Shown: positions 21,641 through 35,215, numbered from the stretch's first letter. The stretch: DNA of 64,000 nt from Candidatus Thorarchaeota archaeon (GCA_029855935.1 JAGSHN010000012.1:272869-336868), one strand, 5' to 3'. Program-made: numbers and translations. Notes: generated from the sequence alone by a model not told the origin.

Positions 21641-22990
21641 ATGAGTGAGAGAGTAGTGCTACTGGATGTCAGATCAGCAGGTGCCTCAGGGGACATGTTC
21701 CTCTCCGCGCTCCTTGACCTTCTTGGTGATCAAGAGGCCCTTATGAGAGTGGCTGCCAGTCTGTTGATCTACGACCCCTCCATAAGGGTAAAGGTCGAAG
21801 AGGTTTCGGCAGACGGTCTGAGGGGTCTGCGCGTGGATATTCATACCGACAAAGGAATACGCCTGTCCCCAGAGTCGCTGCGAGAGGTGATAAAGGGAGT
21901 TGCCGACGAGATTCAGCTCTCGGACATTGCCACCAAGTTCTCATATCGTGTTCTTGACAGGCTGCTTGAGGCGGAGTCCAAGGCCCATGGCACGCCAATT
22001 GACCAGCTCCATCTCCATGAAACAGGCTCTGTGGATACTGTCCTTGATATCGTAGGAACCGCCTATCTGCTAGAGCGTTTCGGTCTCCTGGGAAAGGTGC
22101 GCTTCCTCTCCACTCCGGTCGCTGTCGGAGACGGGACAATTGAGACAGAGCACGGCGAGATGGAGGTCCCCGTCCCAGCTGTCGCAGAAATACTGGTCAG
22201 TCACGACGTACCCTACGTCACGGGAGAGGCCACCACCGAGGCCTTGACTCCGACTGGCGCTGCGATTCTCGTCACGCTTGTCGACGAGTTCGTGGAGTCG
22301 ACAGTAGACATCGAGATAGTGAAGGAGGGTGTGGGATTTGGCTCACGTGACCTGGGGAGGGTGCCGAATGTGATGAAGATTGGGATTGGCAATCGTCCCG
22401 AGGCTGCCGAGGCTGCTCCTGTTGCCGACCGCGTAACCACCACGACCCGCGCGAGAGCTCCCACGGCCAAGCCAGTCACAACAACGGGCAAGAAATCCTC
22501 GGCGCCCACGGGGGTGGGCGTCTGGGAGACCGACCAGGTCCTTGTCATAGAGACCACGGTCGACGACGTAGATGGTGAGGCTATCGGGTCAATCTTCGAC
22601 ACGCTGCTCTCCAGTGGTGACGCCTATGACGTCATAATGATACCTGCCTTTGGTAAGAAGAACCGTCCGTGTTATGTCATCAAGGTGTTGGCTCCCGAGT
22701 CCAGCCTTATGACCGTGGCTGAGACCCTTGTCCGGCATCTCGGCTCTCTTGGTGTGCGGTATACTACGTGGGATCGGCTCAAGGCTGTCCGTGAGATAAT
22801 CGTGTGCCGCTTGGAGATAGATGGCAAGGAATACATGGTCCGGGTGAAGGTCTCGCGTTCACCGGATGGCAGCATCATCAATATCAAGCCCGAGGCTGAT
22901 GACCTGATGAAGGTGTCTGCTGAGACTGGTATGCCTGTGCGCGAGCTCAAGCCGCGTGTGGCGCTCCAAGCCTATGCAGTCACCGACTGA
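21641..22990 (+). CDS. larC: LarC-family nickel-pincer cofactor biosynthesis protein (DUF111)
   Basis: 449 aa; N-terminal VVLLDVRSAGASGDMFLSALLDLLGD is the hallmark LarC start (LYLDCFSGISGDM). Thr/Ala-rich linker, then the C-terminal DUF111 domain. Confidence 0.8.
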   Translation: MSERVVLLDVRSAGASGDMFLSALLDLLGDQEALMRVAASLLIYDPSIRVKVEEVSADGLRGLRVDIHTDKGIRLSPESLREVIKGVADEIQLSDIATKFSYRVLDRLLEAESKAHGTPIDQLHLHETGSVDTVLDIVGTAYLLERFGLLGKVRFLSTPVAVGDGTIETEHGEMEVPVPAVAEILVSHDVPYVTGEATTEALTPTGAAILVTLVDEFVESTVDIEIVKEGVGFGSRDLGRVPNVMKIGIGNRPEAAEAAPVADRVTTTTRARAPTAKPVTTTGKKSSAPTGVGVWETDQVLVIETTVDDVDGEAIGSIFDTLLSSGDAYDVIMIPAFGKKNRPCYVIKVLAPESSLMTVAETLVRHLGSLGVRYTTWDRLKAVREIIVCRLEIDGKEYMVRVKVSRSPDGSIINIKPEADDLMKVSAETGMPVRELKPRVALQAYAVTD

Positions 22991-25289
22991 CGTCTGCAAG
23001 TTGTGGTTGCATCGGCTCTAGATACTGTGCAGGAATCAGCTCCTCGAAGGCCCGAATGCACAGCTGAGCGTACGCCTCTGCGTCATAGCCTGTATCACGG
23101 TCCATCAGCTCTACCGCACGTACTCTCTGCTCAGGGATACGGGCGTCCGCATCGACTATCACATATCCCACACGCTGTCCAGCGTGAATACTTCTCCCAG
23201 CGCTCTTCAACTGATGGGCAACTATTGAGGTTCGTGTGGGAGCGCGATACTCGTCGGGGCTCCGGCTCAGACGTGAGTGTATGACGAGATCCCGCGCATC
23301 GACGTTCCCGACGAAGAGTTTCCTGACAAAGCGTCTGCACACGGCATGGGCCTCTGGAATGAATCTGACAAACTCCTCGCGATTCCTCGCACGCGCGAGA
23401 GTTCTCATCATCTCCATCTGACAGTCGCGTACATAGAGGCATGAGTCCCTCCTGCGTGTGGCGAGTCCCCGAACCTTTATCGCACCGTTTCGATACACCC
23501 CGTAGTAGCGGTTCAGAGGGGCTATTCTACGATGCATTCTCGATGATGGTATCGTGAGCCAGCGATAGACCCCCTTCAGTGACATCTCTATACCTGTTTC
23601 CTCAGTCACCCGTCTGCAGAACTCCTGTATTGTCTCATAGTCCACGGGCCCTCTCATCCTGAGCCAGACGGAGTCGACAATCCCGTGGATGAGATCCAGT
23701 CCCATCCGTTCACCAATCTCTCTCGTCCGGAGCAGCGTCTTTCGGGCAAAGGCGGTCACTGCGGTATGGGCCTCCACCCTACCAAATCTCGCATTCTTAA
23801 AGCCAAGGTATCCGAAACAGGAGACCAGCACACCCTTGAGCGTGTTCTGCATCAGCTGATATCTGGTTGTGTCCCGCCCCTGCTTGATGAGGCGCTTGAA
23901 CTCTCTTCTCCTCCTTATGACGAGCTCGAGCGCCTCAGCCACAATCCCCTTTCTCCGTTGACAGACGCGGTATGGCAGCTCTGGTACATCACGACAGTAT
24001 CGGCCTCCATACCTACACTGTTCGGGTTTCTGTGTACAGATTGTCTCAGGACTGATATTGTTCCTCACCATCAGTGTCGGATACATTGACGAGAAGTCGC
24101 ATTCGACCACATCCTCATAGACATCGGGTGTGGGCTGAAAGATCAGTCCTCCACGGTCGATGAGTGCGAGGACGTTTAGTGACTTCAGAAACTCGGGGTT
24201 CCTCTTCACTGGTGGAATGAGTAGCCCCCTCTTGAGGGCGTGATAGTACTGTATTGCTGCATTGACGCTTCCTATGGACATCCGTGCCACTCGTTGAGGT
24301 GGCGTCATCGCGATCCTGCATCCCTCAACTATCCCATCTAGCCCACGTGGCGAGTAGTAGAGACTTCGACTGGTATCGATATGTATTCGCCCATTGAACA
24401 TCACCTGATTGCCGGGCCGGAAAACGACATGATTGTATTGCCAGAACGATGATGGTTGTCGTTCTCTGACGTTGAGAGGCGTCCCGTCCCGCGAGAGAGT
24501 CAGGATGATGTTGTTGGCTCGCGCCCTGATGGTGAGATAGTGAAAGAGATACTCGTCTCCGCCATTGGTCACTATGATATCGGGGTCTATCTCGTCAATG
24601 GCATGCTGAAGGCATCTGAGGGTCTCCCGCTCGGTCTGTTCTCCGATGACGAGGACTCGCCCATTATCATGCTCTATTGTCACATGATGTAGAGGATCGC
24701 TGAGATGCGGGAAGAGTCTCTGAGAGTCAGCAAAGACCTCCAGTCGTATGATATTCAGTGGTGGAATCTCGTACTCTACATCGTCACGGTCGTCAATGGA
24801 GCGTACTCTTGAGATGGTCATCTCATCTCCCGACCTGTCGAACTCCACCCGCCCGAAGGGGAAGACATCCTCCTCGATGAAGAACTGCTGTACGGGATCG
24901 AGGTCCGCGTGGTATACGACTGCGTCAGGGATCTGATGAAGGTCACGTGCCACCACATACAGTGCAGCCGGTCCTGTCCTGACCCGGATGACTGGTGACC
25001 TGTCCTCATCGTAGACGCTGAGGAATCTATGTATGATCTCGGTCTGGTCAACAAGTGGATGTTCCTCAATGGCTCTGCTGACCTGCTCCAGTGTCCGCTC
25101 GCTATCTCCCTCGATGTGGACGAAGAGTGACGGTCTGAACCCACGATAGATGTATCCGCTTGTGGTCGTGCCCTGTTTTATCCACAGGCGGAGCGCGTTA
25201 TGCGCGTGGTCCACGGTGGCGTCAAGTATCCACCCCCGTTCAGTCGTCCCCGTCATTTTCCTTCCCACAACGCTCTGTTCTCTTCTCAA
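22980..25289 (-). CDS. Family B DNA polymerase-like protein with degenerate catalytic motifs (putative inactivated PolB paralog)
   Basis: 769 aa. Motif A retained (CDFSSMYPTLM, cf. DxxSLYPSI). Motif B weakened (KGVLVSCFGYLG, cf. KxxxNSxYG). Motif C YGDTDS replaced by HGIVDS. Exonuclease region recognisable (DPDIIVTNGGDEYLFHYL). The start may be the second Met (MTGTTERGW). Confidence 0.8.
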   Translation of the reverse strand: MRREQSVVGRKMTGTTERGWILDATVDHAHNALRLWIKQGTTTSGYIYRGFRPSLFVHIEGDSERTLEQVSRAIEEHPLVDQTEIIHRFLSVYDEDRSPVIRVRTGPAALYVVARDLHQIPDAVVYHADLDPVQQFFIEEDVFPFGRVEFDRSGDEMTISRVRSIDDRDDVEYEIPPLNIIRLEVFADSQRLFPHLSDPLHHVTIEHDNGRVLVIGEQTERETLRCLQHAIDEIDPDIIVTNGGDEYLFHYLTIRARANNIILTLSRDGTPLNVRERQPSSFWQYNHVVFRPGNQVMFNGRIHIDTSRSLYYSPRGLDGIVEGCRIAMTPPQRVARMSIGSVNAAIQYYHALKRGLLIPPVKRNPEFLKSLNVLALIDRGGLIFQPTPDVYEDVVECDFSSMYPTLMVRNNISPETICTQKPEQCRYGGRYCRDVPELPYRVCQRRKGIVAEALELVIRRRREFKRLIKQGRDTTRYQLMQNTLKGVLVSCFGYLGFKNARFGRVEAHTAVTAFARKTLLRTREIGERMGLDLIHGIVDSVWLRMRGPVDYETIQEFCRRVTEETGIEMSLKGVYRWLTIPSSRMHRRIAPLNRYYGVYRNGAIKVRGLATRRRDSCLYVRDCQMEMMRTLARARNREEFVRFIPEAHAVCRRFVRKLFVGNVDARDLVIHSRLSRSPDEYRAPTRTSIVAHQLKSAGRSIHAGQRVGYVIVDADARIPEQRVRAVELMDRDTGYDAEAYAQLCIRAFEELIPAQYLEPMQPQLADVSR

Positions 25290-25542
25290 GCTCCGTCAGT
25301 CGCTCTTCCAGATGTCTGACGGTACCGAGGAGGTCAATCAGCGCACTGATGAGAACCACCTCGATGGGCCGGGGGGTGACAATCATTGTCCCGGCATCCG
25401 CGTGGGCGCGAGCGCTGTCGAATATGGCATCAAGCATCGACCTGTCAAGAGGTCGCAGAGTGCGTCGGAAATTATGCCATCGCTCCTCCTCTCTCTCCAC
25501 CATGTCGCGGAAGGTCTGTACAGTTCGGCCCATCTCAATCAC
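25240..25542 (-). CDS. Small hypothetical protein (100 aa) upstream of/overlapping the PolB-like gene start
   Basis: Balanced composition, coiled-coil-like C-terminus (HLEERLTELEKRTER). Sits in an otherwise ORF-poor 610-nt gap. Weakly supported. Confidence 0.25.
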   Translation of the reverse strand: MIEMGRTVQTFRDMVEREEERWHNFRRTLRPLDRSMLDAIFDSARAHADAGTMIVTPRPIEVVLISALIDLLGTVRHLEERLTELEKRTERCGKENDGDD

Positions 25543-25931
25543 CGAGCCTGCCCGCTGTCTGCTCGTTCGCGTCCAGTCTGTGAACGGCCGTCGGCATCCT
25601 CTACCATCGTGTCAGACGGTATCTGTCTTATTGCCACTGGGTGTCTATTCGATATGACATTGTCCTCCTAGACTGATGGCCGAAAGTAAGCAGGCGTGGT
25701 TCGCCTAGTCCCTCTGGGTATACAGGCTGGCGACAGACCCCCAGTACTCAACGGTCCTCGGCCCAGCAAGAATCGGTCTTCTGATGCATCTGGCCTCAAA
25801 AGTGTGGCCCACCAGAGTGCCATACCGCAGGACAAGTTTCTTATTACCCATTCGCACAACACCACAGGACTAGAACGGATGACTGGTAAGCAGTTCTTCC
25901 CGTGCTCACAAATCCGTCTGGTGGTCACGCA

Positions 25932-26498
25932 ATGGTTACGGCACTATTCAAGGTCGTTCTGATGGGCGATGGCTCAGTCGGCAAGACAAGTCTTCGCAGG
26001 GCCTACATGGGCGAGGGATTCCGTGCCTCCTATATGATCACAATCGGGGCAGACTTTGCTGTCAAGAAGATGGTGCTCGAGGGCGGTCACGAGGTCAGCA
26101 TTCAGATCTGGGACCTCGCCGGTCAGGAACACTTCAAGAACGTCCGTTCTACCTTCTACAAGGGCGCCCAGGGGGCCCTTGCTGTCTATTCAACTGTCGA
26201 GCGCTCCTCATTTGAGAACTTGCCCAACTGGATTCAGGAGTGCTGGCATAATGCCGGAAAGAAGATTCCCATTGTTGTCATCGGCAACAAGATTGACCTG
26301 AGACAACAGTTCGAGGGCAATCCTGCCATGCGGCACAACATCGTGACCACGGAGGAGGGTCGAAGGCTCGCAGAGGAGCTGGCCAAACAGGGAGTCCATA
26401 CGTCATTTCTGGAGACATCGGCCAAGACTGGCGAGAACGTCGAGGCAGCATTCCTTGAGCTTGCAATAAAGATTCTTGAGGCTGGTGGGTTGGGATAG
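25932..26498 (+). CDS. Ras-superfamily small GTPase (Rab/Ras-like)
   Basis: ORF 25902..26498; likely start MVTALFKVVLMGDG. G1 GDGSVGKTS, switch I/RabF-like TIGADF, switch II WDLAGQE, G4 GNKIDL, G5 ETSAK. No C-terminal prenylation Cys. Confidence 0.8.
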   Translation: MVTALFKVVLMGDGSVGKTSLRRAYMGEGFRASYMITIGADFAVKKMVLEGGHEVSIQIWDLAGQEHFKNVRSTFYKGAQGALAVYSTVERSSFENLPNWIQECWHNAGKKIPIVVIGNKIDLRQQFEGNPAMRHNIVTTEEGRRLAEELAKQGVHTSFLETSAKTGENVEAAFLELAIKILEAGGLG

Positions 26499-26598
26499 AG
26501 GTCTGTCGCCAACAGATTTGCTTGTTCATCTTGCGCCTCTTTTTTCACAACACTTTTAGCGGTCCCGCCGCGCTTGACAGCCATCATAGAGTGACCGG

Positions 26599-27738
26599 AT
26601 GCGACATCTGATGAGTACAGAGGACCTGTCACTATTCCTCAGACCAAAGACGTTGAAGGCTCCGGCAGAACACGGCTCAGAGATCACCCGCAGGCTTGCC
26701 ATAAACAGGGTTGGACGGATGTACGCAGCTGCAATGCAAGACCGCACAATCCGTCTCTTTGATGTTCGGAACGGCGAGGAGGTGCAGGTCTTTGAGGATA
26801 ACTTTCTCTGCACGAGTATCGCATTCAGTCCACATGGTGATATCATTGCCTCTGGCGGTGTCGACCGCGTGATCAAGCTGTGGGACATCAGAACAGGAGA
26901 GCATCTTGCCACTCTTGAGGGTCACAGCTATCCGGTCTTGAGCCTCTCGTTCTCTCCCGATGGTGACAGACTCGTCTCAGGCGGTGGCGATGCCACTCTG
27001 ATGATATGGGATATTGGCAATCGCTCTCAGATCCGACAGCTGAAGGGTCACTCACTCTACGTCGTCACCTGTCAATGGGACCCCAACGGCGGGCGCATAG
27101 TGTCGGGCAGCGTGGACTCCTTCATCGGTGTGTGGGATCCCGATTCGGGCAAGCGTCTTGCTTGGCTACAGGAACATCACACTGCAGTGCACGCCGTCCG
27201 CTTCACGAATGACGGTCAGACGCTTGCGTCTGGCTCATCCGATCAGACAATAAAGATCTGGGACGCCTCGGTGCCGACGCTGAGGCTGAAACAGACGCTC
27301 CGGCGGCACTCTGCCGAGGTACGCTGTCTTGCCTTTTCATCCGATGGCCGCTATCTTGCGTCCGGGTCAAGTGACAGGGAGCTCTATGTCTGGCTCACAG
27401 ATGGGTACGTCAAAGCAGGCGAGGGTTCCACGCTCAGCGAGATTGATGGCATTGAGTGGCTTCCTGAGAGGTCGGCATTTCTCACCGCGGATGGCTCAGG
27501 TGCAGTCATCCGCTGGGAGGTAGAGGATCTCGAAACGGTTCTTGCACCCTTCAAGGCGCTGTTGTCTGAAATCGAGGCCGACACAACGCACTCCCGGCGC
27601 GAGGAGCTAATTCAGAAGTTCGAGACCCTGAAGTCCCAGTACGATCCTGAAGTGCTGCGTGACAAGAGGGTGTTCTATGCTGTCTGGCAATGCAAGAGAG
27701 GTCTTGGACTGCTGAAGGGCACTCCGGCGAGACAGTGA
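26599..27738 (+). CDS. WD40-repeat beta-propeller protein
   Basis: 379 aa with about seven repeats ending in ...WD: ASGGVDRVIKLWD, VSGGGDATLMIWD, VSGSVDSFIGVWD, ASGSSDQTIKIWD, ASGSSDRELYVW. Confidence 0.8.
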   Translation: MRHLMSTEDLSLFLRPKTLKAPAEHGSEITRRLAINRVGRMYAAAMQDRTIRLFDVRNGEEVQVFEDNFLCTSIAFSPHGDIIASGGVDRVIKLWDIRTGEHLATLEGHSYPVLSLSFSPDGDRLVSGGGDATLMIWDIGNRSQIRQLKGHSLYVVTCQWDPNGGRIVSGSVDSFIGVWDPDSGKRLAWLQEHHTAVHAVRFTNDGQTLASGSSDQTIKIWDASVPTLRLKQTLRRHSAEVRCLAFSSDGRYLASGSSDRELYVWLTDGYVKAGEGSTLSEIDGIEWLPERSAFLTADGSGAVIRWEVEDLETVLAPFKALLSEIEADTTHSRREELIQKFETLKSQYDPEVLRDKRVFYAVWQCKRGLGLLKGTPARQ

Positions 27739-27757
27739 GTTGTTCATACCCTTCGCA

Positions 27758-28435
27758 CTAGAAACTCCTGCCGGAACGCTTCTTGGTCGCGTTGTCTATC
27801 ATGACCTCACACAGCTCAAGGAAGGCCCGTTCGACGTTCTCGCCTGTTAGCGCACTGGACTCGACGTAGAGTGACCCAATCTTGTCAGCGTAGGCCTTGC
27901 CCTCCTCCGTAGAGACCACTCGAATGTCCTCAAGGTCTATCTTGTTGGCAACGACGATCATTGGAATCACTCGGCCTGTGCTGTTGAATGCCTCCTCTCT
28001 CCAGCGGTCAAGATTGAGAAACGTGCGCCTTCTTGTGACATCATAGACCAGGAGGCCTCCCCGTGCGCCCCTATAGAATGACTGCCTGACGACCTCAAAC
28101 CTCTGCTGGCCTGCGAGATCCCATACCTGCAGTGTGACCTTTGCATCTCGACTGGGCACCTGAACTCTTTTGATTGCAAAGTCACTTCCGATGGTCCGCT
28201 TGTAGTCAGACTCGAAATGGTCTTGGGTGAACCTGACCGTCAGCGCAGTCTTTCCCACGGCGCCATCACCGAGCATGACCACTTTGAACCTGTACTCTGC
28301 AGGCACAGGGCTCACATCCTCGTATCGCCATTGTGCTGGCGCCTTAAAACACTTGCCGACTCGTATACCCTCCAATCCGCCTCTGACGGACGGATTTCGG
28401 CGGTTGTGACGTAAGTGTAGGATCGTCTTCCTCAT
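27758..28435 (-). CDS. Ras-superfamily small GTPase (Rab/Ras-like), second copy
   Basis: G1 GDGAVGKTA, TIGSDF, switch II WDLAGQQ, G4 ANKIDL, G5 ESSAL. The ORF's ATG gives a 55-aa N-terminal extension. An in-frame GTG at about 28315 (VSPVPAEYRFKVVMLGDG) would give a canonical-length GTPase. Confidence 0.75.
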   Translation of the reverse strand: MRKTILHLRHNRRNPSVRGGLEGIRVGKCFKAPAQWRYEDVSPVPAEYRFKVVMLGDGAVGKTALTVRFTQDHFESDYKRTIGSDFAIKRVQVPSRDAKVTLQVWDLAGQQRFEVVRQSFYRGARGGLLVYDVTRRRTFLNLDRWREEAFNSTGRVIPMIVVANKIDLEDIRVVSTEEGKAYADKIGSLYVESSALTGENVERAFLELCEVMIDNATKKRSGRSF

Positions 28436-28522
28436 TATGATTTAGTGATCAGGTCCCCAAAATGCACACATCATTTAATAAGAGAATGCGCAATTCGAGC
28501 TTGATTTCCGCCGAGATGATTC

Positions 28523-28903
28523 GTGATGAAGCGCCCTGACTACGCGGAGCTTGCAAGGATACTTGAAGAGATGAACGAGGAGGGTGGGTACTATGCATCC
28601 ATCCTTGCACGCGACGACGGGCTACTGATAGCCTCTGCTGCTAACGCATCGACAAACCGCGAGATAGTCGCCGCGATGGCAGGCTATGTTGCATCGACTG
28701 TCGAGAGGATGCGCAATGAGCTCCATCTCGGAGAGCTGACCGAGATATCGGTCCGGTGCACCGAGGGAAAGGCTGTATTCCGTAAGATTCTGCGTGGGAA
28801 GGATCAGGCGCTGATACTTGCAGCAGTGATGCCGCGTCACATCCGGTATCACTCCCGTGCTCTCGGAAAGGGAGCAACACGGATACGAAAACTGCTTAAG
28901 TGA
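28523..28903 (+). CDS. Roadblock/LC7 (MglB-like) domain protein
   Basis: 126 aa; size and alternating hydrophobic pattern (GGYYASILARDDGLLIAS...ILAAVM) fit the Roadblock/LC7 alpha-beta fold. Immediately downstream of the small GTPase. Confidence 0.55.
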   Translation: MMKRPDYAELARILEEMNEEGGYYASILARDDGLLIASAANASTNREIVAAMAGYVASTVERMRNELHLGELTEISVRCTEGKAVFRKILRGKDQALILAAVMPRHIRYHSRALGKGATRIRKLLK

Positions 28904-28968: not shown

Positions 28969-29294
28969 ACTTGACAGACACGGATGCCGACTCGAACAGT
29001 GATGACGTCGGGGAGGACACCTCGGACAAGATCGAGGTCCTCTTCTTCAAGTCGGACACGTGTGCATTCTGTCCCAGGGCGGAGGAGGTGCTTCGCGAAA
29101 CCCTTGAAGAGTTCGGAGCAGACATGTTCAAAGTGATTGTCTATAACGTATCAGAAGACCCCGAGAAGGCAGAGGAATACGGGATATTCGCCCTGCCTGC
29201 GATAATCATCGGCGGGATGTCGGTAACAGGCATACCTGAGCCGGAGATAATAATGAAGATGATACTAGGGTCCAAACTCGGTACGAGGAGTTGA
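28969..29294 (+). CDS. Thioredoxin/glutaredoxin-like small redox protein (CxxC)
   Basis: ORF 28857..29294 overlaps Roadblock; a TTG at about 28969 is the likely start. Acidic N-terminal tail, then the thioredoxin-fold pattern VLFFKSDTCAFCPRAEEVL...FALPAIIIGG. Confidence 0.55.
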
Positions 29295-29301
29295 GTCGAC
29301 A

Positions 29302-30045
29302 ATGAGTCAGTATCAGATTGATAGGGTCAAGACCGGGATACCCGGCCTCGACGAGCTAATAGAGGGTGGATTTCCCCGAGGGGACACCATTCTGATTGCC
29401 GGAAAGGCGGGCACCGGGAAGAGCATTCTCGCCACCCAGTTTCTCTACAGAGGCGCTGTGGACTACAATGAGCCGGGTGTGCTGGTCACCCTGGAGGAGC
29501 CGCCTCGTCTCATCAAGCGGAACATGATGCGGTTCGGAATGGACCTTGACAAGCTCGAGCGCGAGGGGATGCTCTCAATAGTTGATCTCTCGCCCGCACG
29601 GGACACTCCACTGAACATAAGCGAGTATCCGTCATTCGACCTCTCGGGCCTCGAGGCCATCATAATGCATCACATCAAGAAGGTAAATGCCCAGCGTGTT
29701 GTCATCGACACAATCTCCATCCTCGCGTACAAATTCAAGGCGCGGGACATTCTTCGTGAGGAACTGTTCAAACTGTGTGCCCACATCACCAGCACTGGTT
29801 GTACGCTGTTGCTCACAAGCGAGATTCCGGCTCAGGACACTGGCCTTGGCGTCTTTGACATTGAGGCGTTCCTCGCATCGGGCGTCATAGTGCTCTACAA
29901 CGAGAAGATCAGTGACACCTCCCGCTCAAGGTCCATAGAGGTTCTGAAACTGAGGGGCTCGAAACACAGCTCTCGCATTCACTCGATGCGTATTACTGAC
30001 GAGGGGATACGCGTCTGGCCTGGTGAGATTAGTCCCGGAACGTGA
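29302..30045 (+). CDS. KaiC-like / RecA-superfamily ATPase (single domain)
   Basis: 247 aa; TGIPGLDELIEGGFPRGDTILIAGKAGTGKS (Walker A) and VVIDTIS (Walker B), typical of archaeal KaiC/RadA-like signalling ATPases. Confidence 0.7.
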   Translation: MSQYQIDRVKTGIPGLDELIEGGFPRGDTILIAGKAGTGKSILATQFLYRGAVDYNEPGVLVTLEEPPRLIKRNMMRFGMDLDKLEREGMLSIVDLSPARDTPLNISEYPSFDLSGLEAIIMHHIKKVNAQRVVIDTISILAYKFKARDILREELFKLCAHITSTGCTLLLTSEIPAQDTGLGVFDIEAFLASGVIVLYNEKISDTSRSRSIEVLKLRGSKHSSRIHSMRITDEGIRVWPGEISPGT

Positions 30046-30060: not shown

Positions 30061-30780
30061 GTGAGTAGTAGCGACGATCCCGCCGAGGTACCACCGCCGA
30101 CTCTTGCGCGACCGATGCTGGGCGATCTCGTTCAGTTCGGTCAGCTGACACAGGTCTCAATCATGCTTGTCGGCCCTCTGGGGTCAGGCAAGACGACCTA
30201 TGCTGAAGCATTCCTTGCAGAGGGACTGCGTCTGGGCTTTCCGGCGGTCTTCGTCACGACCGATGTGTCACCTCGCGTCATACGCAACGACATGGCCCGT
30301 CACGGATGGCCAGTGGACGAATACGAGAAGGCAGGGCAGTTCGTCTTCATTGACGGCTATTCGGAGAGAATGGGCGCGCCGAGGAGCAGCACTGCTTACT
30401 CACTCTCGAAGGTGGACGACATAACGGAGCTTGGCATAGTCCTGTCGGAGGTGCTCGACGACCTTGTAGTGGCACGGATAGTTGTGGACAGTCTCTCAAC
30501 ACTCATTCTCCACTCCAATCCGGCGACGATGCCGCGGGCCGTGCAGCGTCTGAGTGGACGACTCACTCAGAGCTCCCACAGCATTATGTACATACTTGAA
30601 GAAGGGGTCCACGATGAGAAGACCTACGCCACCTTCTCCTACTTGGCTGACGCTGTCCTGCGCTTCAAGGTGGACGAGTCTGGGCCCGAGCCGAGGCACT
30701 ACGTCCGGATGGAACGGATGCGTGGCACAGAGACCACCCGGGCGTGGATGGAGTTCGTCCTCGAGCGACCAGAAACCTAA
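30061..30780 (+). CDS. KaiC-like / RecA-superfamily ATPase, second paralog
   Basis: 239 aa; Walker A GPLGSGKTT, Walker B IVVDSLS, same fold pattern as the preceding gene. Confidence 0.6.
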   Translation: MSSSDDPAEVPPPTLARPMLGDLVQFGQLTQVSIMLVGPLGSGKTTYAEAFLAEGLRLGFPAVFVTTDVSPRVIRNDMARHGWPVDEYEKAGQFVFIDGYSERMGAPRSSTAYSLSKVDDITELGIVLSEVLDDLVVARIVVDSLSTLILHSNPATMPRAVQRLSGRLTQSSHSIMYILEEGVHDEKTYATFSYLADAVLRFKVDESGPEPRHYVRMERMRGTETTRAWMEFVLERPET

Positions 30781-30809: not shown

Positions 30810-33131
30810 ATGCCCCTCCTGGAATCACCAATCCTCTCCGTCATGCGGGATGTGCTCTGTGGTTCTATGTCCCTTGAGGACGGTCTGTCCGCTCTTCAGA
30901 CTCTTGGCAGGACCCATCCCAGTGAGGTCGATCTGGCCTTTGAGATCGCAAGGGCCATTGAGGAGGTGATTCTGAGGAGGCCGGTCCTTGCGAGCGCGAA
31001 GCTCACGGAGCTGATGGTCCGTCACTCCTTCTCGGAGAACAGGTCACTACCTCTGCTACTCATGCTGATGGAGACACGGTATACGAACTCTTTCAGGAGA
31101 AACGAGGCAGAGCTGCTTCCTGACAAGGAGGCACTCCCTCGTCTGCTGGACATCCTTGGTGAACTTGCACAGTCGGTTGGCGTTGCACTGGAGCTCAATC
31201 TACGACCTCTTCTGCCATTTCTCGCCGATGAGACACTGCTCACCCTTGACGCGATCTATGCACGAGGTCATAGGCCCTCGATTCGTCTGTCCCTCCGCGA
31301 GGCGCACTACCTCGCAAGTCTTCTCATCGATCAGGGGCTGTCTGAGTGCGCAGAGGCCCTTCTCCACCGCGTGCTGCATCTCTCTCGTGATGTGGAGATG
31401 TACGACCTTGCCTACGAGGTCTTGCTTGATGAGGCCTATGTCCTCACTGAACTGGGTCTCTATGACGATTGCCGTGCACTCCTTGCCCCAGCAATCGAGG
31501 AGGCGGAGAGGACAAAAAATCTTGAACGACTGGCCTCGCTGACACTCTGTCTCGTCGTCAATGAGACACGTGACGACGCTGTCGACCATGTCAGAGCAAG
31601 GACGATGGGTGATCGTGCTGTGTCCCTGTTTGCAGAGGCGGTATCTCAGTCGCTACTCCCGCGGACAGAGCTTGCCATGGCCTACCTCGTGATTGGGTCG
31701 AGCATTCTCGGCACGGGCTGGCGAGAGGGCGTCCGAGAGGCCATCGAGAGGTTTGAGTCGGCTCTGCATGTTCTTGACGACATTCAGGATGGAGAAATCA
31801 CGGTCTCTATGATGCTGTTCAAATGTTTCGCCGGGCTGGGCTTTGCACACGCTCTGAGCGGAGGTTATGAGAATACAGAACTGGCGATTGACCATCTGAA
31901 TCGGGCCCTGGCAATCCTCCGCCAGCTGGAACGCAACGGCGAGGACTTGCGTGCTGAGCGTGCCCGTTGCCATCACGCAATCGGGTGGGCGGCACTGCTC
32001 TCCGAGTCCGACGAGTTCTGGGAGAGGGGTATCAGTGCATTCAGAGAGGCCACCAGACTCAGGAAGGTGCTACAGGAGGAGAGGCGCATTCCTCCAATTG
32101 AGACTCTTGGTAGCCAACTTGGTCTGACTCTGTCGGAGCTGAGGACTGTCGAGTCTATTGACGACTCGATGTACACGTCACTTCGCGATGTCCTACTGCA
32201 GTACGTCCCCCTCTTTCCAACGGACTCGAGGTCATATGTAGAGGTTGCCATTGCAGTGTATGATGTGGCGTGGACAATCCATCGTCACGGCCTTGAGATA
32301 TCGCCACGCATACTTCGACTCTTCGACGACATTGTCAGAATGCTCGACGAGAGCAAGGTTGTTGAGGGACGGTCCTTCGTGGCCGGGGCCCAGCTCGTTG
32401 TACCCTGCCTCGCCCGGGAGTGGAACCAGCTGGAGCGCTTGGCGTCTGTTGTGGCCGCCGAGGAAGAGTCCCTCGACGTCGGGCTCCGAAGTGTCGCTCG
32501 TCTAATGGGAGCCCTGGCTGTGGCAAAGATGAATATTGAGGGACTCGACTCGCTTGGCCCTGAGGAGGTGCGTGATCCGGTCTCTCCTGAGGTGCAGGAG
32601 GCAGACCCGCTCCTGGCTGGCTATTGGGCGGCCCAAGCGGCAATCATCCGCTGTGTATCCACATTTCGAGCGGACGGAAGCCTTGAGAACTTCGCCTCTG
32701 GACTTGAGCAGGCCGCACAGCTCTGCGATAGGATTCCCTCTGACCCAGCTGGCTATGAGCTCTCGGAATTTGTCCGGGCGACATCCGCTTCACTTGGCTC
32801 GGTTCTGTATCAGTTTGCCAGCGTACTGAAGTCCAGGCTGTCCGATCAGGACGTGAGGATCACAGACCACACTCGGACGGAGTCGCTCGGGACGAGCGAG
32901 CCCGTCTCTATGATTCTCTCGGAGGACTGGCTTGGGCTCATAAAGATCACAAGTGCCTACCTACAGATGATTGAGCGGGATCCTGACCTAGATCTTGAGC
33001 CGTATCTGCGTGCAATCCAGTCTAACCTCTTGCGGGCTGTGAGGGTGATGGACCGTACGGCCATGATTGAGAGACGCCTTCTCTCCAGACTCGGTCTTGA
33101 GATGAATCGCCGTTACTATATGCGGCGCTGA
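30810..33131 (+). CDS. Large all-alpha (TPR/helical-repeat-like) hypothetical protein
   Basis: ORF 30744..33131; likely start MPLLESPIL at about 30810, right after the KaiC-2 stop. About 770 aa, Leu/Ala/Glu/Arg-rich with helical periodicity and no catalytic motifs. Confidence 0.45.
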   Translation: MPLLESPILSVMRDVLCGSMSLEDGLSALQTLGRTHPSEVDLAFEIARAIEEVILRRPVLASAKLTELMVRHSFSENRSLPLLLMLMETRYTNSFRRNEAELLPDKEALPRLLDILGELAQSVGVALELNLRPLLPFLADETLLTLDAIYARGHRPSIRLSLREAHYLASLLIDQGLSECAEALLHRVLHLSRDVEMYDLAYEVLLDEAYVLTELGLYDDCRALLAPAIEEAERTKNLERLASLTLCLVVNETRDDAVDHVRARTMGDRAVSLFAEAVSQSLLPRTELAMAYLVIGSSILGTGWREGVREAIERFESALHVLDDIQDGEITVSMMLFKCFAGLGFAHALSGGYENTELAIDHLNRALAILRQLERNGEDLRAERARCHHAIGWAALLSESDEFWERGISAFREATRLRKVLQEERRIPPIETLGSQLGLTLSELRTVESIDDSMYTSLRDVLLQYVPLFPTDSRSYVEVAIAVYDVAWTIHRHGLEISPRILRLFDDIVRMLDESKVVEGRSFVAGAQLVVPCLAREWNQLERLASVVAAEEESLDVGLRSVARLMGALAVAKMNIEGLDSLGPEEVRDPVSPEVQEADPLLAGYWAAQAAIIRCVSTFRADGSLENFASGLEQAAQLCDRIPSDPAGYELSEFVRATSASLGSVLYQFASVLKSRLSDQDVRITDHTRTESLGTSEPVSMILSEDWLGLIKITSAYLQMIERDPDLDLEPYLRAIQSNLLRAVRVMDRTAMIERRLLSRLGLEMNRRYYMRR

Positions 33132-35215
33132 CTCTCCGAGTGTGTCACTGGTCTGTACTCACCGGGCCGCGCACCCCACGTTGCCCATCCTGACGTGGCT
33201 GTTCTGAGCTCATTTGCAAGGCCGAACGACTCTCTGACAGGAATCTCTGCCTCGACCTTGTACAATCCGCGCTCCGTCTCAATGCTCAGGACACGCCCCT
33301 TTCTGCGGGCGAGGACGGAGGTGACCTCTCCGACATACTCCTCTGGCATGGTTATCTCCAGATGCATCCACGGCTCCAACAGGACGGGCTCGCCGGTGAT
33401 CACACTCTCACGGGCTGCGTCCAGCAGCGGCTGTGTGACATCTCTCCAAGACGTCTCGGGGCCGGCGGCCCTGATGTCTGCCCTCAGTATCTCAATGGTG
33501 ACCCTTCGCATGCGTTCTCCAGCTACCGGACCATTCCGGATGAGCGCAGAGAAAGCCTCTCTGATCCATTGTGCCTCCTCGGAGTGAGGATTGACTGTTC
33601 TAGTCCTATCAATCAGGTAGTTGAGAGAGTGTCTCTGTGCTGCAAGCACGACATCCTCAGCATCTGGGAGGTAGTCCTCAGGTGTTAGTATGGCACGAGC
33701 AGTAAACTCGCTGGCTGGCGGCCCACCACGTGTGACCGCCTCCCCGTCGTGTGTCATCTGTTCCTTCAACAACACCATAGGCCTTCCCAGAACGACGTCG
33801 ACCCCCTGATGGGAGAGCTTCTCCACTGCTATCTCGACATGCAACTCGCCAGCACCAGAGAGGAGCATCTCTCCAGTCTCGGGGTTGACGCTGAACTCAA
33901 GAGCAGGGTCACAGGCCGCAAACTCTGCAATTGGCTGCTGAATCTTGCTGAGGTCCTTGAGCACCCTCGGCTCGACGGTATACGTCACAACAGGTTCGGT
34001 GGGATACTGCAGCCCCATCATCGGAGCCGCTCTCTCGACCGACGCATCCACGAGTGTGTCCCCGATGGCGATGTCTTTGAGGCCGGTGAGGAATGCAAGA
34101 CTACCGCAGGGGACTGTGTCGAGGGCGACACGAATCTTCGACATCGTGATGCCCACCTGCAGTGTCTTCGACACTCGTCCTGTGCGCAGGTTTCTCAATG
34201 GCGCTGCTCTGTTCAACGTTCCACTGAACACCCGGCCAGTGCTGACGGTACCAGCGTGACGGTCAGGTCGGACATCCGCCACAACAACGACGCATGGTCC
34301 TGCGGGATTGCAAGTCCTGAGCGCTGCATACACACTCTCGTCACACTCGGGGCTCCAGAACCGAGGAACTCTATAGGACTGTGCCTCTACTGGGCTTGGC
34401 GTTGTCCTGACAAGAGAGTTGAGCACAACGGGCGCGATAGGAAACCTGTCCTGCAGTCGCCGCTCGTCCCCAGCATAGTATGCGGAGAGGATATCGTCTA
34501 GAACTGAGAGGAACGCCTCCGCGAGATCTCTCGGACTGTCTCTGCCATCAGTCCTCTGGAGGAGAGTCTCGATGCCTATCCCCCACTTATCGAGAGCGGA
34601 ACCAATGGTCAGCGACCCCCTCCTGAAGGAGATCTCCCATCTGTCAAGGAGGTCGGCCTCAAGGTACTTTCCGAGCATTGCGTTGAACTCGCGCACGACT
34701 CTCTGCACCTCTGAGGCCACCTTGTCCCGACGCAGACGCCTCTCTGTGATCAGCCGGTCTACCTTGTTGACGAACAGACATGGTCGGACGAGTTCGTAAG
34801 CTGCCTGCCTCGTCACCGTTTCGGTCTGGACCATTATGCCCTCTATTGCATCCACCACGACCAGTGCGCCATCGGTGAGTCTCAGCCCTCTCGTCACATG
34901 GCTTGAGAAGTCGATATGTCCTGGAGTATCGATGAGGTGCACAAGATATTCCTCTTCATTCATCGAGTGGATGAGGGATATGCTCGACGCCTTGATGGTG
35001 ATGCCTCTCTCCTGCTCTATGAGGTCATAGTCCATTAGACGCGCTCTTGCTGCGACGTCTTTGGACAGCAGGCCGGATGCAGCTATCAGCGAGTCTGTGA
35101 GTGTGGTCTTCCCGTGGTCTATGTGGGCAATCACGGTGCAGAGCCTGATTCGCTCTGGCGAGTCGACTAGTTTGCTCACCCGTTCGGTGACGAACTTCTT
35201 GTAGAGCCTCGACAC
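33116..35215 (-). CDS. Elongation factor 2-like GTPase paralog lacking the diphthamide His motif
   Basis: 699 aa; G domain AHIDHGKTTL, DTPGHIDF, NKVDR and collinear EF-2 domains II-V. The domain IV loop reads ILRADIRAAGPETSW where aEF-2 has LHEDAIHRGPAQV, so the modified His and flanking residues are substituted. Confidence 0.8.
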   Translation of the reverse strand: MSRLYKKFVTERVSKLVDSPERIRLCTVIAHIDHGKTTLTDSLIAASGLLSKDVAARARLMDYDLIEQERGITIKASSISLIHSMNEEEYLVHLIDTPGHIDFSSHVTRGLRLTDGALVVVDAIEGIMVQTETVTRQAAYELVRPCLFVNKVDRLITERRLRRDKVASEVQRVVREFNAMLGKYLEADLLDRWEISFRRGSLTIGSALDKWGIGIETLLQRTDGRDSPRDLAEAFLSVLDDILSAYYAGDERRLQDRFPIAPVVLNSLVRTTPSPVEAQSYRVPRFWSPECDESVYAALRTCNPAGPCVVVVADVRPDRHAGTVSTGRVFSGTLNRAAPLRNLRTGRVSKTLQVGITMSKIRVALDTVPCGSLAFLTGLKDIAIGDTLVDASVERAAPMMGLQYPTEPVVTYTVEPRVLKDLSKIQQPIAEFAACDPALEFSVNPETGEMLLSGAGELHVEIAVEKLSHQGVDVVLGRPMVLLKEQMTHDGEAVTRGGPPASEFTARAILTPEDYLPDAEDVVLAAQRHSLNYLIDRTRTVNPHSEEAQWIREAFSALIRNGPVAGERMRRVTIEILRADIRAAGPETSWRDVTQPLLDAARESVITGEPVLLEPWMHLEITMPEEYVGEVTSVLARRKGRVLSIETERGLYKVEAEIPVRESFGLANELRTATSGWATWGARPGEYRPVTHSESQRRI

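Follow-up and report, generated by a model that had tools for sequence, protein, structure and literature searches.

Dimers of Roadblock proteins are established platforms for small GTPases, as in the bacterial MglB/MglA pair and in the Ragulator/Rag complex. This role was summarized by Tran and colleagues (PMC10933270), who also noted that GTPase and Roadblock genes do not generally share operons in Asgard archaea and that GTPase-regulator pairs are hard to infer from the layout of Asgard genomes. It is already established that Asgard archaea have Rab-like GTPases and Roadblock proteins, with a presumed GTPase-activating protein (GAP) or guanine nucleotide exchange factor (GEF) relationship between them, and what the field lacks is an assignment of regulators to their GTPases. 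Here we describe a locus in a 64-kb stretch of DNA from a metagenome-assembled genome of Candidatus Thorarchaeota (JAGSHN010000012.1:272869-336868, hereafter the window) that holds genes for two Rab-like GTPases, a WD40 protein and a Roadblock/LC7 protein, the last followed by genes for a thioredoxin, two KaiC-like ATPases and a TPR protein.

The second of the two GTPases, here called GTPase 2, belongs to a family that has been structurally characterized through Thor-Rab of Ca. Thorarchaeota SMTZ1-45 (KXH73347.1; PDB 7EZB, 7EZD and 7EZE). Three crystal structures of Thor-Rab are available, in which Rab1B is the closest structural relative; the protein has Rab-family motifs and no prenylation cysteines, its intrinsic hydrolysis is slow, and a structure-based tree puts it with Rab and Ras (PMC10933270). 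The same study aligned its Switch-I Arg37 with the intrinsic arginine of MglA and reported that other Thorarchaeota Rab paralogues are without that Arg (PMC10933270). In AlphaFold3 models of 2026 that cite Tran et al., a Roadblock dimer from Thorarchaeota is bound to its GTPase in the manner of MglB on MglA (PMC13408092).

The MglA/MglB polarity switch of bacteria resembles the locus in that a small GTPase gene adjoins a Roadblock gene, the encoded GTPase combines an intrinsic Arg in Switch I with a Gln in Switch II, and the Roadblock protein has a conserved C-terminal segment; moreover, the nearest relatives of the window Roadblock outside Thorarchaeota lie in MglA-like operons of Chloroflexota. 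However, GTPase 2 has a Rab-type DxxGQ motif and Rabs as its best matches rather than the MglA-type TxxGQ, the genes in the window are divergent instead of co-transcribed, the Roadblock gene is inside a KaiC/TPR operon, and any GAP or GEF activity of its product is putative. Likeness to Ragulator (LAMTOR2/3) and the Rag GTPases is at the level of fold and family only. LAMTOR2 is the best eukaryotic match of the window Roadblock in a profile search (~7e-4), and the nearby WD40 and alpha-solenoid proteins loosely recall GATOR/SEA components, but the window GTPases are Rab-like and neither is a Rag-type GTPase with a C-terminal roadblock domain, and no sign of a multi-subunit Ragulator was seen.

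An Asgard operon in which genes for a Rab-like GTPase and a DENN-domain protein accompany that of a LAMTOR1-like Roadblock protein has also been described (Liu et al. 2021; bioRxiv 10.1101/2020.10.19.343400). It has in common with the window a Roadblock-superfamily gene beside a Rab-like GTPase gene in a conserved Asgard neighborhood, but the partners in the window are WD40, thioredoxin, KaiC and TPR proteins, with no DENN protein found. Neither the cluster proteins nor the HEAT-repeat protein of related loci gave a Pfam match to DENN, uDENN, dDENN or folliculin (E <= 0.01-0.1), a result that applies to the Pfam level only.

For the downstream genes, modules of an archaeal KaiC-like ATPase with a KaiB-like thioredoxin-family protein were reportedly treated by Makarova, Galperin and Koonin in 2017. 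Archaeal KaiC-like ATPases are associated with a KaiB-like thioredoxin-family gene (Makarova et al. 2016, PMC4858521). As in such modules, a thioredoxin-fold gene in the window lies directly 5' of a single-domain KaiC-like ATPase gene, which is followed by a divergent second KaiC-like gene. The window thioredoxin differs in its invariant CxxC and in falling below the Pfam KaiB threshold, and the window differs by the preceding Roadblock gene and the trailing TPR gene. In the searchable literature we found no description of a Roadblock gene embedded in a thioredoxin/KaiC/KaiC/TPR operon, nor of the Thor-Rab neighborhood with WD40 convergent and Roadblock divergent.

Organization and conservation of the locus

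Gene content, protein families, gene organization, conservation and the orthology of GTPase 2 to Thor-Rab are observations on the locus itself, which is conserved across the sampled Thorarchaeota as two adjoining units. In unit A, the genes of GTPase 1 and the WD40 protein are on the plus strand and that of GTPase 2 is convergent with them. Unit B, divergent from GTPase 2, comprises the genes for the Roadblock protein, the CxxC thioredoxin, the KaiC-like proteins KaiC1 and KaiC2, and the TPR protein, which look like one operon. A first-pass annotation had recognized the two GTPases, the WD40 protein and the Roadblock protein as open reading frames (ORFs), all of which are in place (Table 1), and had spoken of a compact arrangement. 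A correction concerns GTPase 2, which is encoded on the minus strand: its gene converges on that of the WD40 protein across a gap of 19 bp and diverges from that of the Roadblock protein across a spacer of 219 bp, so the four genes are not one transcription unit.

Conservation was surveyed by a Roadblock-profile scan of one genome per GTDB species, which returned 57 loci of the Thorarchaeota lineage (55 of them in the junction counts), one of Freyarchaeia and six of Chloroflexota, and twelve window proteins were mapped on all loci by tblastn. Each cluster gene is single-copy and keeps its synteny in 55 Thorarchaeota species, with identities of 55-93%. The Roadblock gene is linked most firmly with the thioredoxin/KaiC/TPR genes: it adjoins the thioredoxin gene at 54/54 loci, and the junctions from thioredoxin to KaiC1 (51/51), from KaiC1 to KaiC2 (49/49) and from KaiC2 to TPR (42/43) are kept as well. 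GTPase 2 and Roadblock lie divergently within 300 bp of each other at 44 of 50 informative loci, also at those from which WD40 or GTPase 1 is lost or displaced; four have an insertion of 1.2-1.8 kb and two are without GTPase 2. The WD40 and GTPase 2 genes are adjacent, convergent and 5-84 bp apart at 39 of 44 informative loci, the WD40 gene being absent from the other five, and GTPase 1 is followed directly by WD40 at 16 of 32 loci, with an extra gene between them at 13 and GTPase 1 absent at three.

The neighborhood is conserved within Thorarchaeota, but the conservation is no stronger than that of unrelated flanking genes. The control junctions LarC-PolB (25/25) and TPR-EF-2 paralogue (37/38) are equally conserved, and in Thorarchaeota collinearity extends over all 20 kb from MtrH to the EF-2 paralogue. 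Synteny in this group therefore does not discriminate in favor of a link between GTPase and Roadblock. Outside Thorarchaeota the scan gave just the one Freyarchaeia and six Chloroflexota loci; the comparison of the arrangement covers one Asgard class.

The insertions in the spacer between GTPase 2 and Roadblock differ from one another. They are a TnpB/Cas12f-like gene (L018:8637-9857, minus strand; Cas12f1-like_TNB 1.1e-15), a pyruvate kinase gene (L001:6396-7823, minus strand) and an ORF of 322 aa that matches nothing significantly in Pfam (L029:8817-9785, plus strand).

The extra gene, for a HEAT-repeat protein of ~400-447 aa, was seen between GTPase 1 and WD40 in 32 of the fetched Thorarchaeota loci, a few of them duplicates of one contig and SMTZ1-45 included (for example, L054:6820-8010 and L014:7945-9288 on the minus strand, L005:9829-11058 on the plus strand). 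Its N-terminus matches Pfam HEAT_2 down to 2.6e-9, and from sequence and weak Pfam hints the middle reads as beta-sandwich-like and the C-terminus as alpha/beta. The hints, all below threshold, are to the coatomer beta appendage platform (3 of 12 members, best 0.006) and to the PTHB1 GAE domain. At loci without WD40 the HEAT gene is directly downstream of GTPase 2. It is absent from the window, having been lost in the window's lineage, and remnants appear to persist in some loci, such as L044.

The Rab-like GTPases and the WD40 protein

GTPase 2 and Thor-Rab are orthologues. A phmmer comparison of GTPase 2 with 7EZB gave 2.8e-80 over residues 1-173, of which 119 are identical (69%), and the 7EZB sequence is itself identical to the GTPase 2 orthologue encoded on LRSL01000056.1 (locus L054), where a Roadblock orthologue lies 136 bp from the crystallized Thor-Rab gene, in divergent orientation. 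Thor-Rab is like GTPase 2 in length, in its MPAEYR N-terminus, in its Switch-I Arg and in having no prenylation Cys, and its context on LRSL01000056.1, with WD40 convergent and Roadblock divergent, is like that in the window. It differs in coming from another Thorarchaeota lineage, and its gene neighborhood was outside the scope of the published work. The statement that such a cluster is functionally uncharacterized in Asgard archaea is out of date in part, and only in part, as three crystal structures and a GTPase assay have been published for the orthologue of GTPase 2 (PMC10933270).

By motif and profile, both GTPases belong to the Rab-like branch of the Ras superfamily. The motif sets quoted in the first-pass annotation are present in both translations, as GDGSVGKT, TIGADF, WDLAGQE, NKIDL and ETSAK in GTPase 1 and as GDGAVGKT, TIGSDF, WDLAGQQ, NKIDL and ESSAL in GTPase 2. 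Pfam Ras (PF00071) scores 161 and 179 bits for the two against a cut-off of 21.6; the Ras, WD40 and Roadblock_LC7 searches all come out above their cut-offs, with scores far beyond chance, and competing families are weak (Arf 1e-9 to 1e-10; Gtr1_RagA 6e-6 or nothing). The best PDB matches of GTPase 1 are Thor-Rab (2.2e-37) and then Rab1, and among the PDB matches listed for each GTPase all 59 others after Thor-Rab are Rab, Ypt or Sec4. With Thor-Rab and then only eukaryotic Rabs as nearest solved relatives, the GTPases are of Rab/Ras type, as first annotated, and not of the MglA, Era or translation-factor families. The MglA-type Switch II (TxxGQ) is in neither protein, both having WDLAGQ, and the Chloroflexota MglA-like GTPase (TVPGQ) gave no tblastn match to either window GTPase gene at E <= 10. 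The one MglA-like feature is the Switch-I Arg of GTPase 2 (DYKRTIG), which is kept in 53 of 54 orthologues; the equivalent position of GTPase 1 is Ile. A prenylation Cys is absent from the last ~12 residues of both proteins and of every orthologue compared. Since they are without a C-terminal Cys for geranylgeranylation, we refer to them as Rab-like and not as Rab proper.

The two GTPases are paralogues and are 44% identical, GTPase 1 having insertions of 9 and 5 residues between G4 and G5. Identity of GTPase 1 over the Thorarchaeota loci is 72-93%. Its C-terminus (26460-26498) reads ...LELAIKILEAGGL (...ILEAGGL), and the form ...LELAIKILEAGG(L/M) is nearly invariant in 35 orthologues, which is unusual because the tails of small GTPases are normally variable. 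That this tail might be a docking peptide, for instance for the WD40 propeller, is pure speculation.

In the WD40 protein, five repeats pass Pfam individually and seven WD-like repeats can be counted by eye, a number that would be enough for a closed beta-propeller. A C-terminal tail of ~70 aa follows, read as helical by eye.

The Roadblock protein and the divergent spacer

The ORF annotated as a 126-aa Roadblock/LC7 protein does belong to that family. It scores 25.9 bits against PF03259 (cut-off 23), and a profile of 23 orthologues matches the Roadblock/LC7 structures 7YH1 (3.5e-6) and 7F8M (6.5e-6) in the PDB, ahead of LAMTOR2. An AlphaFold2 model built from the 23 orthologues (pLDDT 48, pTM 0.34) has an order of secondary structure that fits alpha-beta-beta-alpha-beta-beta-beta-alpha; its quality does not allow a search by fold, and membership of the family is taken from the profile evidence only. 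A basic C-terminal segment, MPR..RYHSR..GK..TRIR, is conserved. The Roadblock proteins crystallized in Tran et al. 2024 are only distant relatives (E ~1e-3 to 1e-6), the crystallized Thorarchaeota Roadblock being a distant paralogue of that in the window.

The Roadblock gene is the first of the plus-strand operon. When 46 orthologous divergent spacers were aligned with MAFFT, only two blocks were well conserved. One, TTTAATAAGAGAATGCGCAA (28474-28493; aligned form TTTAATAAG(A/G)GAATGCGCAA), is ~40-50 bp 5' of the Roadblock ATG, and the other, CTTAAAA (28343-28349), is ~40 bp 5' of the GTPase 2 start. These promoter-like blocks, one for each gene, may be promoters. The ATGCGCAA part of the Roadblock-side block, 3' of a TATA-like box, could be an operator or initiator.

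The thioredoxin/KaiC/TPR operon

The suggestion that the Roadblock gene forms a unit with the thioredoxin-like and KaiC-like genes downstream of it is supported by their common strand and by their uninterrupted adjacency over the Thorarchaeota loci. The gaps in the window are 67 bp (Roadblock-thioredoxin), 7 bp (thioredoxin-KaiC1), 15 bp (KaiC1-KaiC2) and 29 bp (KaiC2-TPR). The thioredoxin is of the MJ0307/Thioredoxin_3 type (NCBIfam MJ0307-family thioredoxin 1.1e-15, below its cut-off), and its CxxC (CAFC) is invariant in 58/58 orthologues. It reaches 2.2e-4 and 21.3 bits against Pfam KaiB (PF07689, cut-off 27), with Thioredoxin_3 the best match, and it may work like KaiB, of which it is not a demonstrable family member.

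By domain content, KaiC1 and KaiC2 are KaiC-like ATPases of archaeal type. KaiC1 has, by eye, an intact Walker A, TLEE catalytic pair and Walker B; it is 76-92% identical over the Thorarchaeota loci, and NCBIfam KaiC-domain models match it also. In KaiC2 the Walker A, Walker B and RMRG motifs are kept, and an invariant TTD replaces the catalytic Glu-Glu of KaiC in 52 orthologues. Neither is a double-domain circadian KaiC, as these are two separate single-domain genes with scores far below the cut-offs of the NCBIfam KaiC equivalogs. The TPR protein is all helices in an AlphaFold2 model (pLDDT 87.5), and Foldseek matched it to generic TPR scaffolds only (Ctr9, Ski3, IFT-A and LGN), with no specific homologue. 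The homologues listed for it are all ~765 aa long, and every one with a taxon name is from Thorarchaeota or Promethearchaeota.

Gene limits and neighboring features

Gene limits (Table 1) were set by orthologues, by alignment to PDB 7EZB and by the gene calls on an identical public scaffold (ENA ERZ23491057). By these, GTPase 2 is corrected from 225 aa to 182 aa, with an N-terminus, MPAEYR, that matches the orthologues and 7EZB. The thioredoxin-like gene is likewise corrected from an ORF of 145 aa that overlapped the Roadblock gene.

Table 1. Coordinates of the cluster genes, the divergent spacer and flanking genes, counted from the first nucleotide of the window
Feature	Coordinates	Strand	Length and matches
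Family-B DNA polymerase	22980-25542	-	758 aa; weak exonuclease-domain match 2.4e-6
GTPase 1 ORF	25902-26498	+	Gene proper 25932-26498, 188 aa; Pfam Ras 1.9e-47
WD40 ORF	26599-27738	+	Gene proper 26611-27738, 375 aa; Pfam WD40 (PF00400) 1.1e-55
GTPase 2 ORF	27758-28435	-	Gene proper 27758-28306, 182 aa, GTG start at 28306; Pfam Ras 7.5e-53
Divergent intergenic spacer	28307-28525	none	Two conserved promoter-like blocks
Roadblock/LC7 ORF, 126 aa	28523-28903	+	Gene proper 28526-28903, 125 aa; Robl_LC7 8.1e-6
Thioredoxin-fold gene	28971-29294	+	107 aa; Pfam Thioredoxin_3 1.9e-9
KaiC1, single-domain KaiC-like (RecA-superfamily) ATPase	29302-30045	+	247 aa; KaiC (PF06745) 1.2e-72
KaiC2, divergent KaiC-like protein	30061-30780	+	239 aa; Pfam KaiC 5.8e-30, DUF7504 4.2e-11
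TPR-type solenoid, last operon gene	30810-33131	+	773 aa; no Pfam or NCBIfam match
EF-G/EF-2-like GTPase paralogue	33116-35215	-	699 aa; GTP_EFTU 8.6e-47, EFG_III, EFG_C

The metagenomic scaffold ENA ERZ23491057 (473 kb) encodes proteins with 100% identity to the Roadblock and TPR proteins of the window. Among the homologues listed with taxon names for these two proteins, almost all are from Thorarchaeota or Promethearchaeota, the newer phylum name, with two labeled Hodarchaeota and Lokiarchaeota; taxon names among the listed GTPase 2 homologues are likewise almost all Thorarchaeota or Promethearchaeota. The Asgard-type origin proposed on first inspection is therefore upheld and is narrowed, by these named homologues, to Thorarchaeota. 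GC content is uniform at 54-59%, the cluster being like its flanks, and no tRNA genes or Rfam families were found anywhere in the 64-kb window.

The gene of the EF-2 paralogue overlaps the 3' end of the convergent TPR gene by 16 bp, a junction kept in 37 of 38 loci. On the other flank, a 100-aa ORF precedes and overlaps the family-B polymerase gene; its orthologues carry DUF8156, and in related loci the DUF8156-type ORF and the polymerase gene are always together.

Relationship of the Roadblock protein to GTPase 2

Every protein-protein relationship at this locus is one that we infer. The reading that we tentatively prefer, as a real possibility but short of a probable one, is that the Roadblock protein, as an MglB-like dimer, would regulate GTPase 2, which is slow and carries the Arg, that the WD40 protein would be an effector or other partner of this GTPase, and that the Roadblock protein would be expressed together with a TPR scaffold and a sensing module of KaiB/KaiC type. 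The Roadblock dimer would act as a GAP and/or GEF, positioning the Switch-I Arg and Switch-II Gln of the GTPase itself, with no arginine finger supplied, and the WD40 propeller would serve as effector or scaffold. We propose further that the level or state of the Roadblock protein would be coupled to an archaeal KaiB/KaiC-type module for ATP- or redox-sensing signaling, because its gene would be co-transcribed with the thioredoxin, KaiC and TPR genes. The first-pass annotation had pointed to Roadblock proteins as GEF or GAP partners of small GTPases in eukaryotes and bacteria. Such a pairing with the flanking GTPases is plausible here, but gene organization ties the Roadblock gene more tightly to the KaiC operon than to either GTPase.

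The partnership draws support from the position of the Chloroflexota relatives beside an MglA-like GTPase, from the Switch-I Arg kept in nearly every GTPase 2 orthologue and from the slow hydrolysis of Thor-Rab. The nearest Roadblock relatives found by the scan outside Thorarchaeota are 29-35% identical to that of the window and have in common with it an N-terminal ILEEMNxEGG and the basic C-terminal segment. In Chloroflexota, such a relative is immediately downstream of an MglA-like GTPase gene (TVPGQ) in 6/6 loci, and in 5/6 a second Roadblock gene lies upstream of the GTPase. In Anaerolineales (L065:8864-10369 and L067-L071), the operon encodes a Roadblock protein of 162 aa, an MglA-like GTPase of 199 aa and a second Roadblock protein of 129 aa, this last being the closest non-Asgard relative that the scan found. 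The likeness hints at an old transfer between the groups.

Several observations weigh against this partnership. The Chloroflexota relatives pair with MglA-type and not with Rab-type GTPases, and at the single Freyarchaeia locus no GTPase was found among the flanking ORFs scanned. GTPase 2 and Roadblock have separate promoter-like blocks and are not co-transcribed. Their junction is among the less stable of the region, with unrelated insertions in three separate contexts and the occasional loss of GTPase 2, and we rejected synteny as proof of linkage, the unrelated control junctions being kept as well or better. Mirror-tree co-evolution was also rejected as evidence. Its first designs gave r = 0.24-0.44 for Roadblock and GTPase 2 (Mantel p ~0.001), and in a leave-two-out design over 55 gene pairs the two ranked second with r = 0.43, but unrelated pairs reached 0.40-0.49 and the test was therefore discarded. 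To these may be added the low confidence of the Roadblock monomer model.

The Roadblock protein could instead act in its own operon, regulating the TPR scaffold and the KaiC-like P-loop ATPases, or serving them as adaptor, in an archaeal signaling hub of KaiB/KaiC type, with the GTPases and the WD40 protein forming a separate neighboring unit. We consider this rather unlikely. In its favor, the five genes are on the same strand with gaps of 7-67 bp and the junction counts given above, the operon has its own conserved promoter-like block, and insertions and losses are tolerated at the junction of GTPase 2 and Roadblock. The Roadblock superfamily has, moreover, been implicated in general NTPase regulation, according to a report that cites Koonin and Aravind 2000 (PMC13408092). 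On the other hand, we came across no earlier case in which an ATPase of RecA/KaiC type is regulated by a Roadblock protein, the Chloroflexota relatives are in GTPase operons without KaiC, and the residual distances of the Roadblock protein do not track those of the thioredoxin, KaiC and TPR proteins (r -0.13 to 0.00), in what is a weak test. To our knowledge, moreover, all characterized Roadblock partners are GTPases or dynein.

An inherited gene order without functional coupling between the GTPase/WD40 and Roadblock/KaiC genes, the true GTPase partner of the Roadblock protein, if any, being encoded elsewhere and perhaps MglA-like, is in our view less likely again. The collinear 20-kb region with its equally conserved unrelated junctions, the failure of the co-evolution test to rise above background, the MglA-type partners of the bacterial relatives and the general placement of Asgard GTPase genes outside Roadblock operons (Tran et al., PMC10933270) would all agree with it. 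Against it, GTPase 2 stays beside Roadblock in lineages where rearrangement has removed WD40, GTPase 1, DUF8156 and PolB from the neighborhood (L011, L013-L017 and L043), GTPase 2 alone among Thorarchaeota Rab paralogues has the MglA-like Switch-I Arg, and there is no MglA-like GTPase within the 64-kb window.

Quite improbable is an integrated signaling and scaffolding machine, in which a KaiB/KaiC-type ATPase and redox sensor would set the GAP/GEF activity of the Roadblock dimer, the dimer would switch Thor-Rab, and Thor-Rab would recruit the WD40 and TPR scaffold and, in sister lineages, also a protein of HEAT, beta-sandwich and platform domains that resembles adaptin or a COPI appendage. 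Finally, a mobile or anti-phage defense island, or eukaryotic contamination, can be set aside as hardly credible: WD40, TPR, P-loop ATPase and GTPase genes do occur in some defense systems and a TnpB-like gene is inserted at one related locus, but no PADLOC defense model matched specifically (a generic WD40 repeat match and a weak, partial match of KaiC1 to the mad8 model, 8.6e-5 and 20 bits), GC content is uniform with the flanks, the neighbors are housekeeping genes, and the cluster is single-copy and syntenic in the 55 species.

Implications

The locus is a modest addition to known Asgard biology. For the only Thorarchaeota Rab so far purified and crystallized, it gives a specific and testable candidate pair in the form of the divergent Roadblock neighbor, and it also offers a candidate effector, the WD40 protein, and an unexpected link to a KaiB/KaiC-like operon. 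Should the pairing be false, the locus would be merely a conserved gene order. The integrated machine, improbable as it is, would if true be a prokaryotic forerunner of GTPase-controlled coats or of Ragulator/GATOR-like assemblies. If the pairing of the Roadblock protein with GTPase 2 is true, an MglB-style GAP/GEF mechanism would be at work in the archaea related to eukaryotes, with a Rab-type GTPase as its target.

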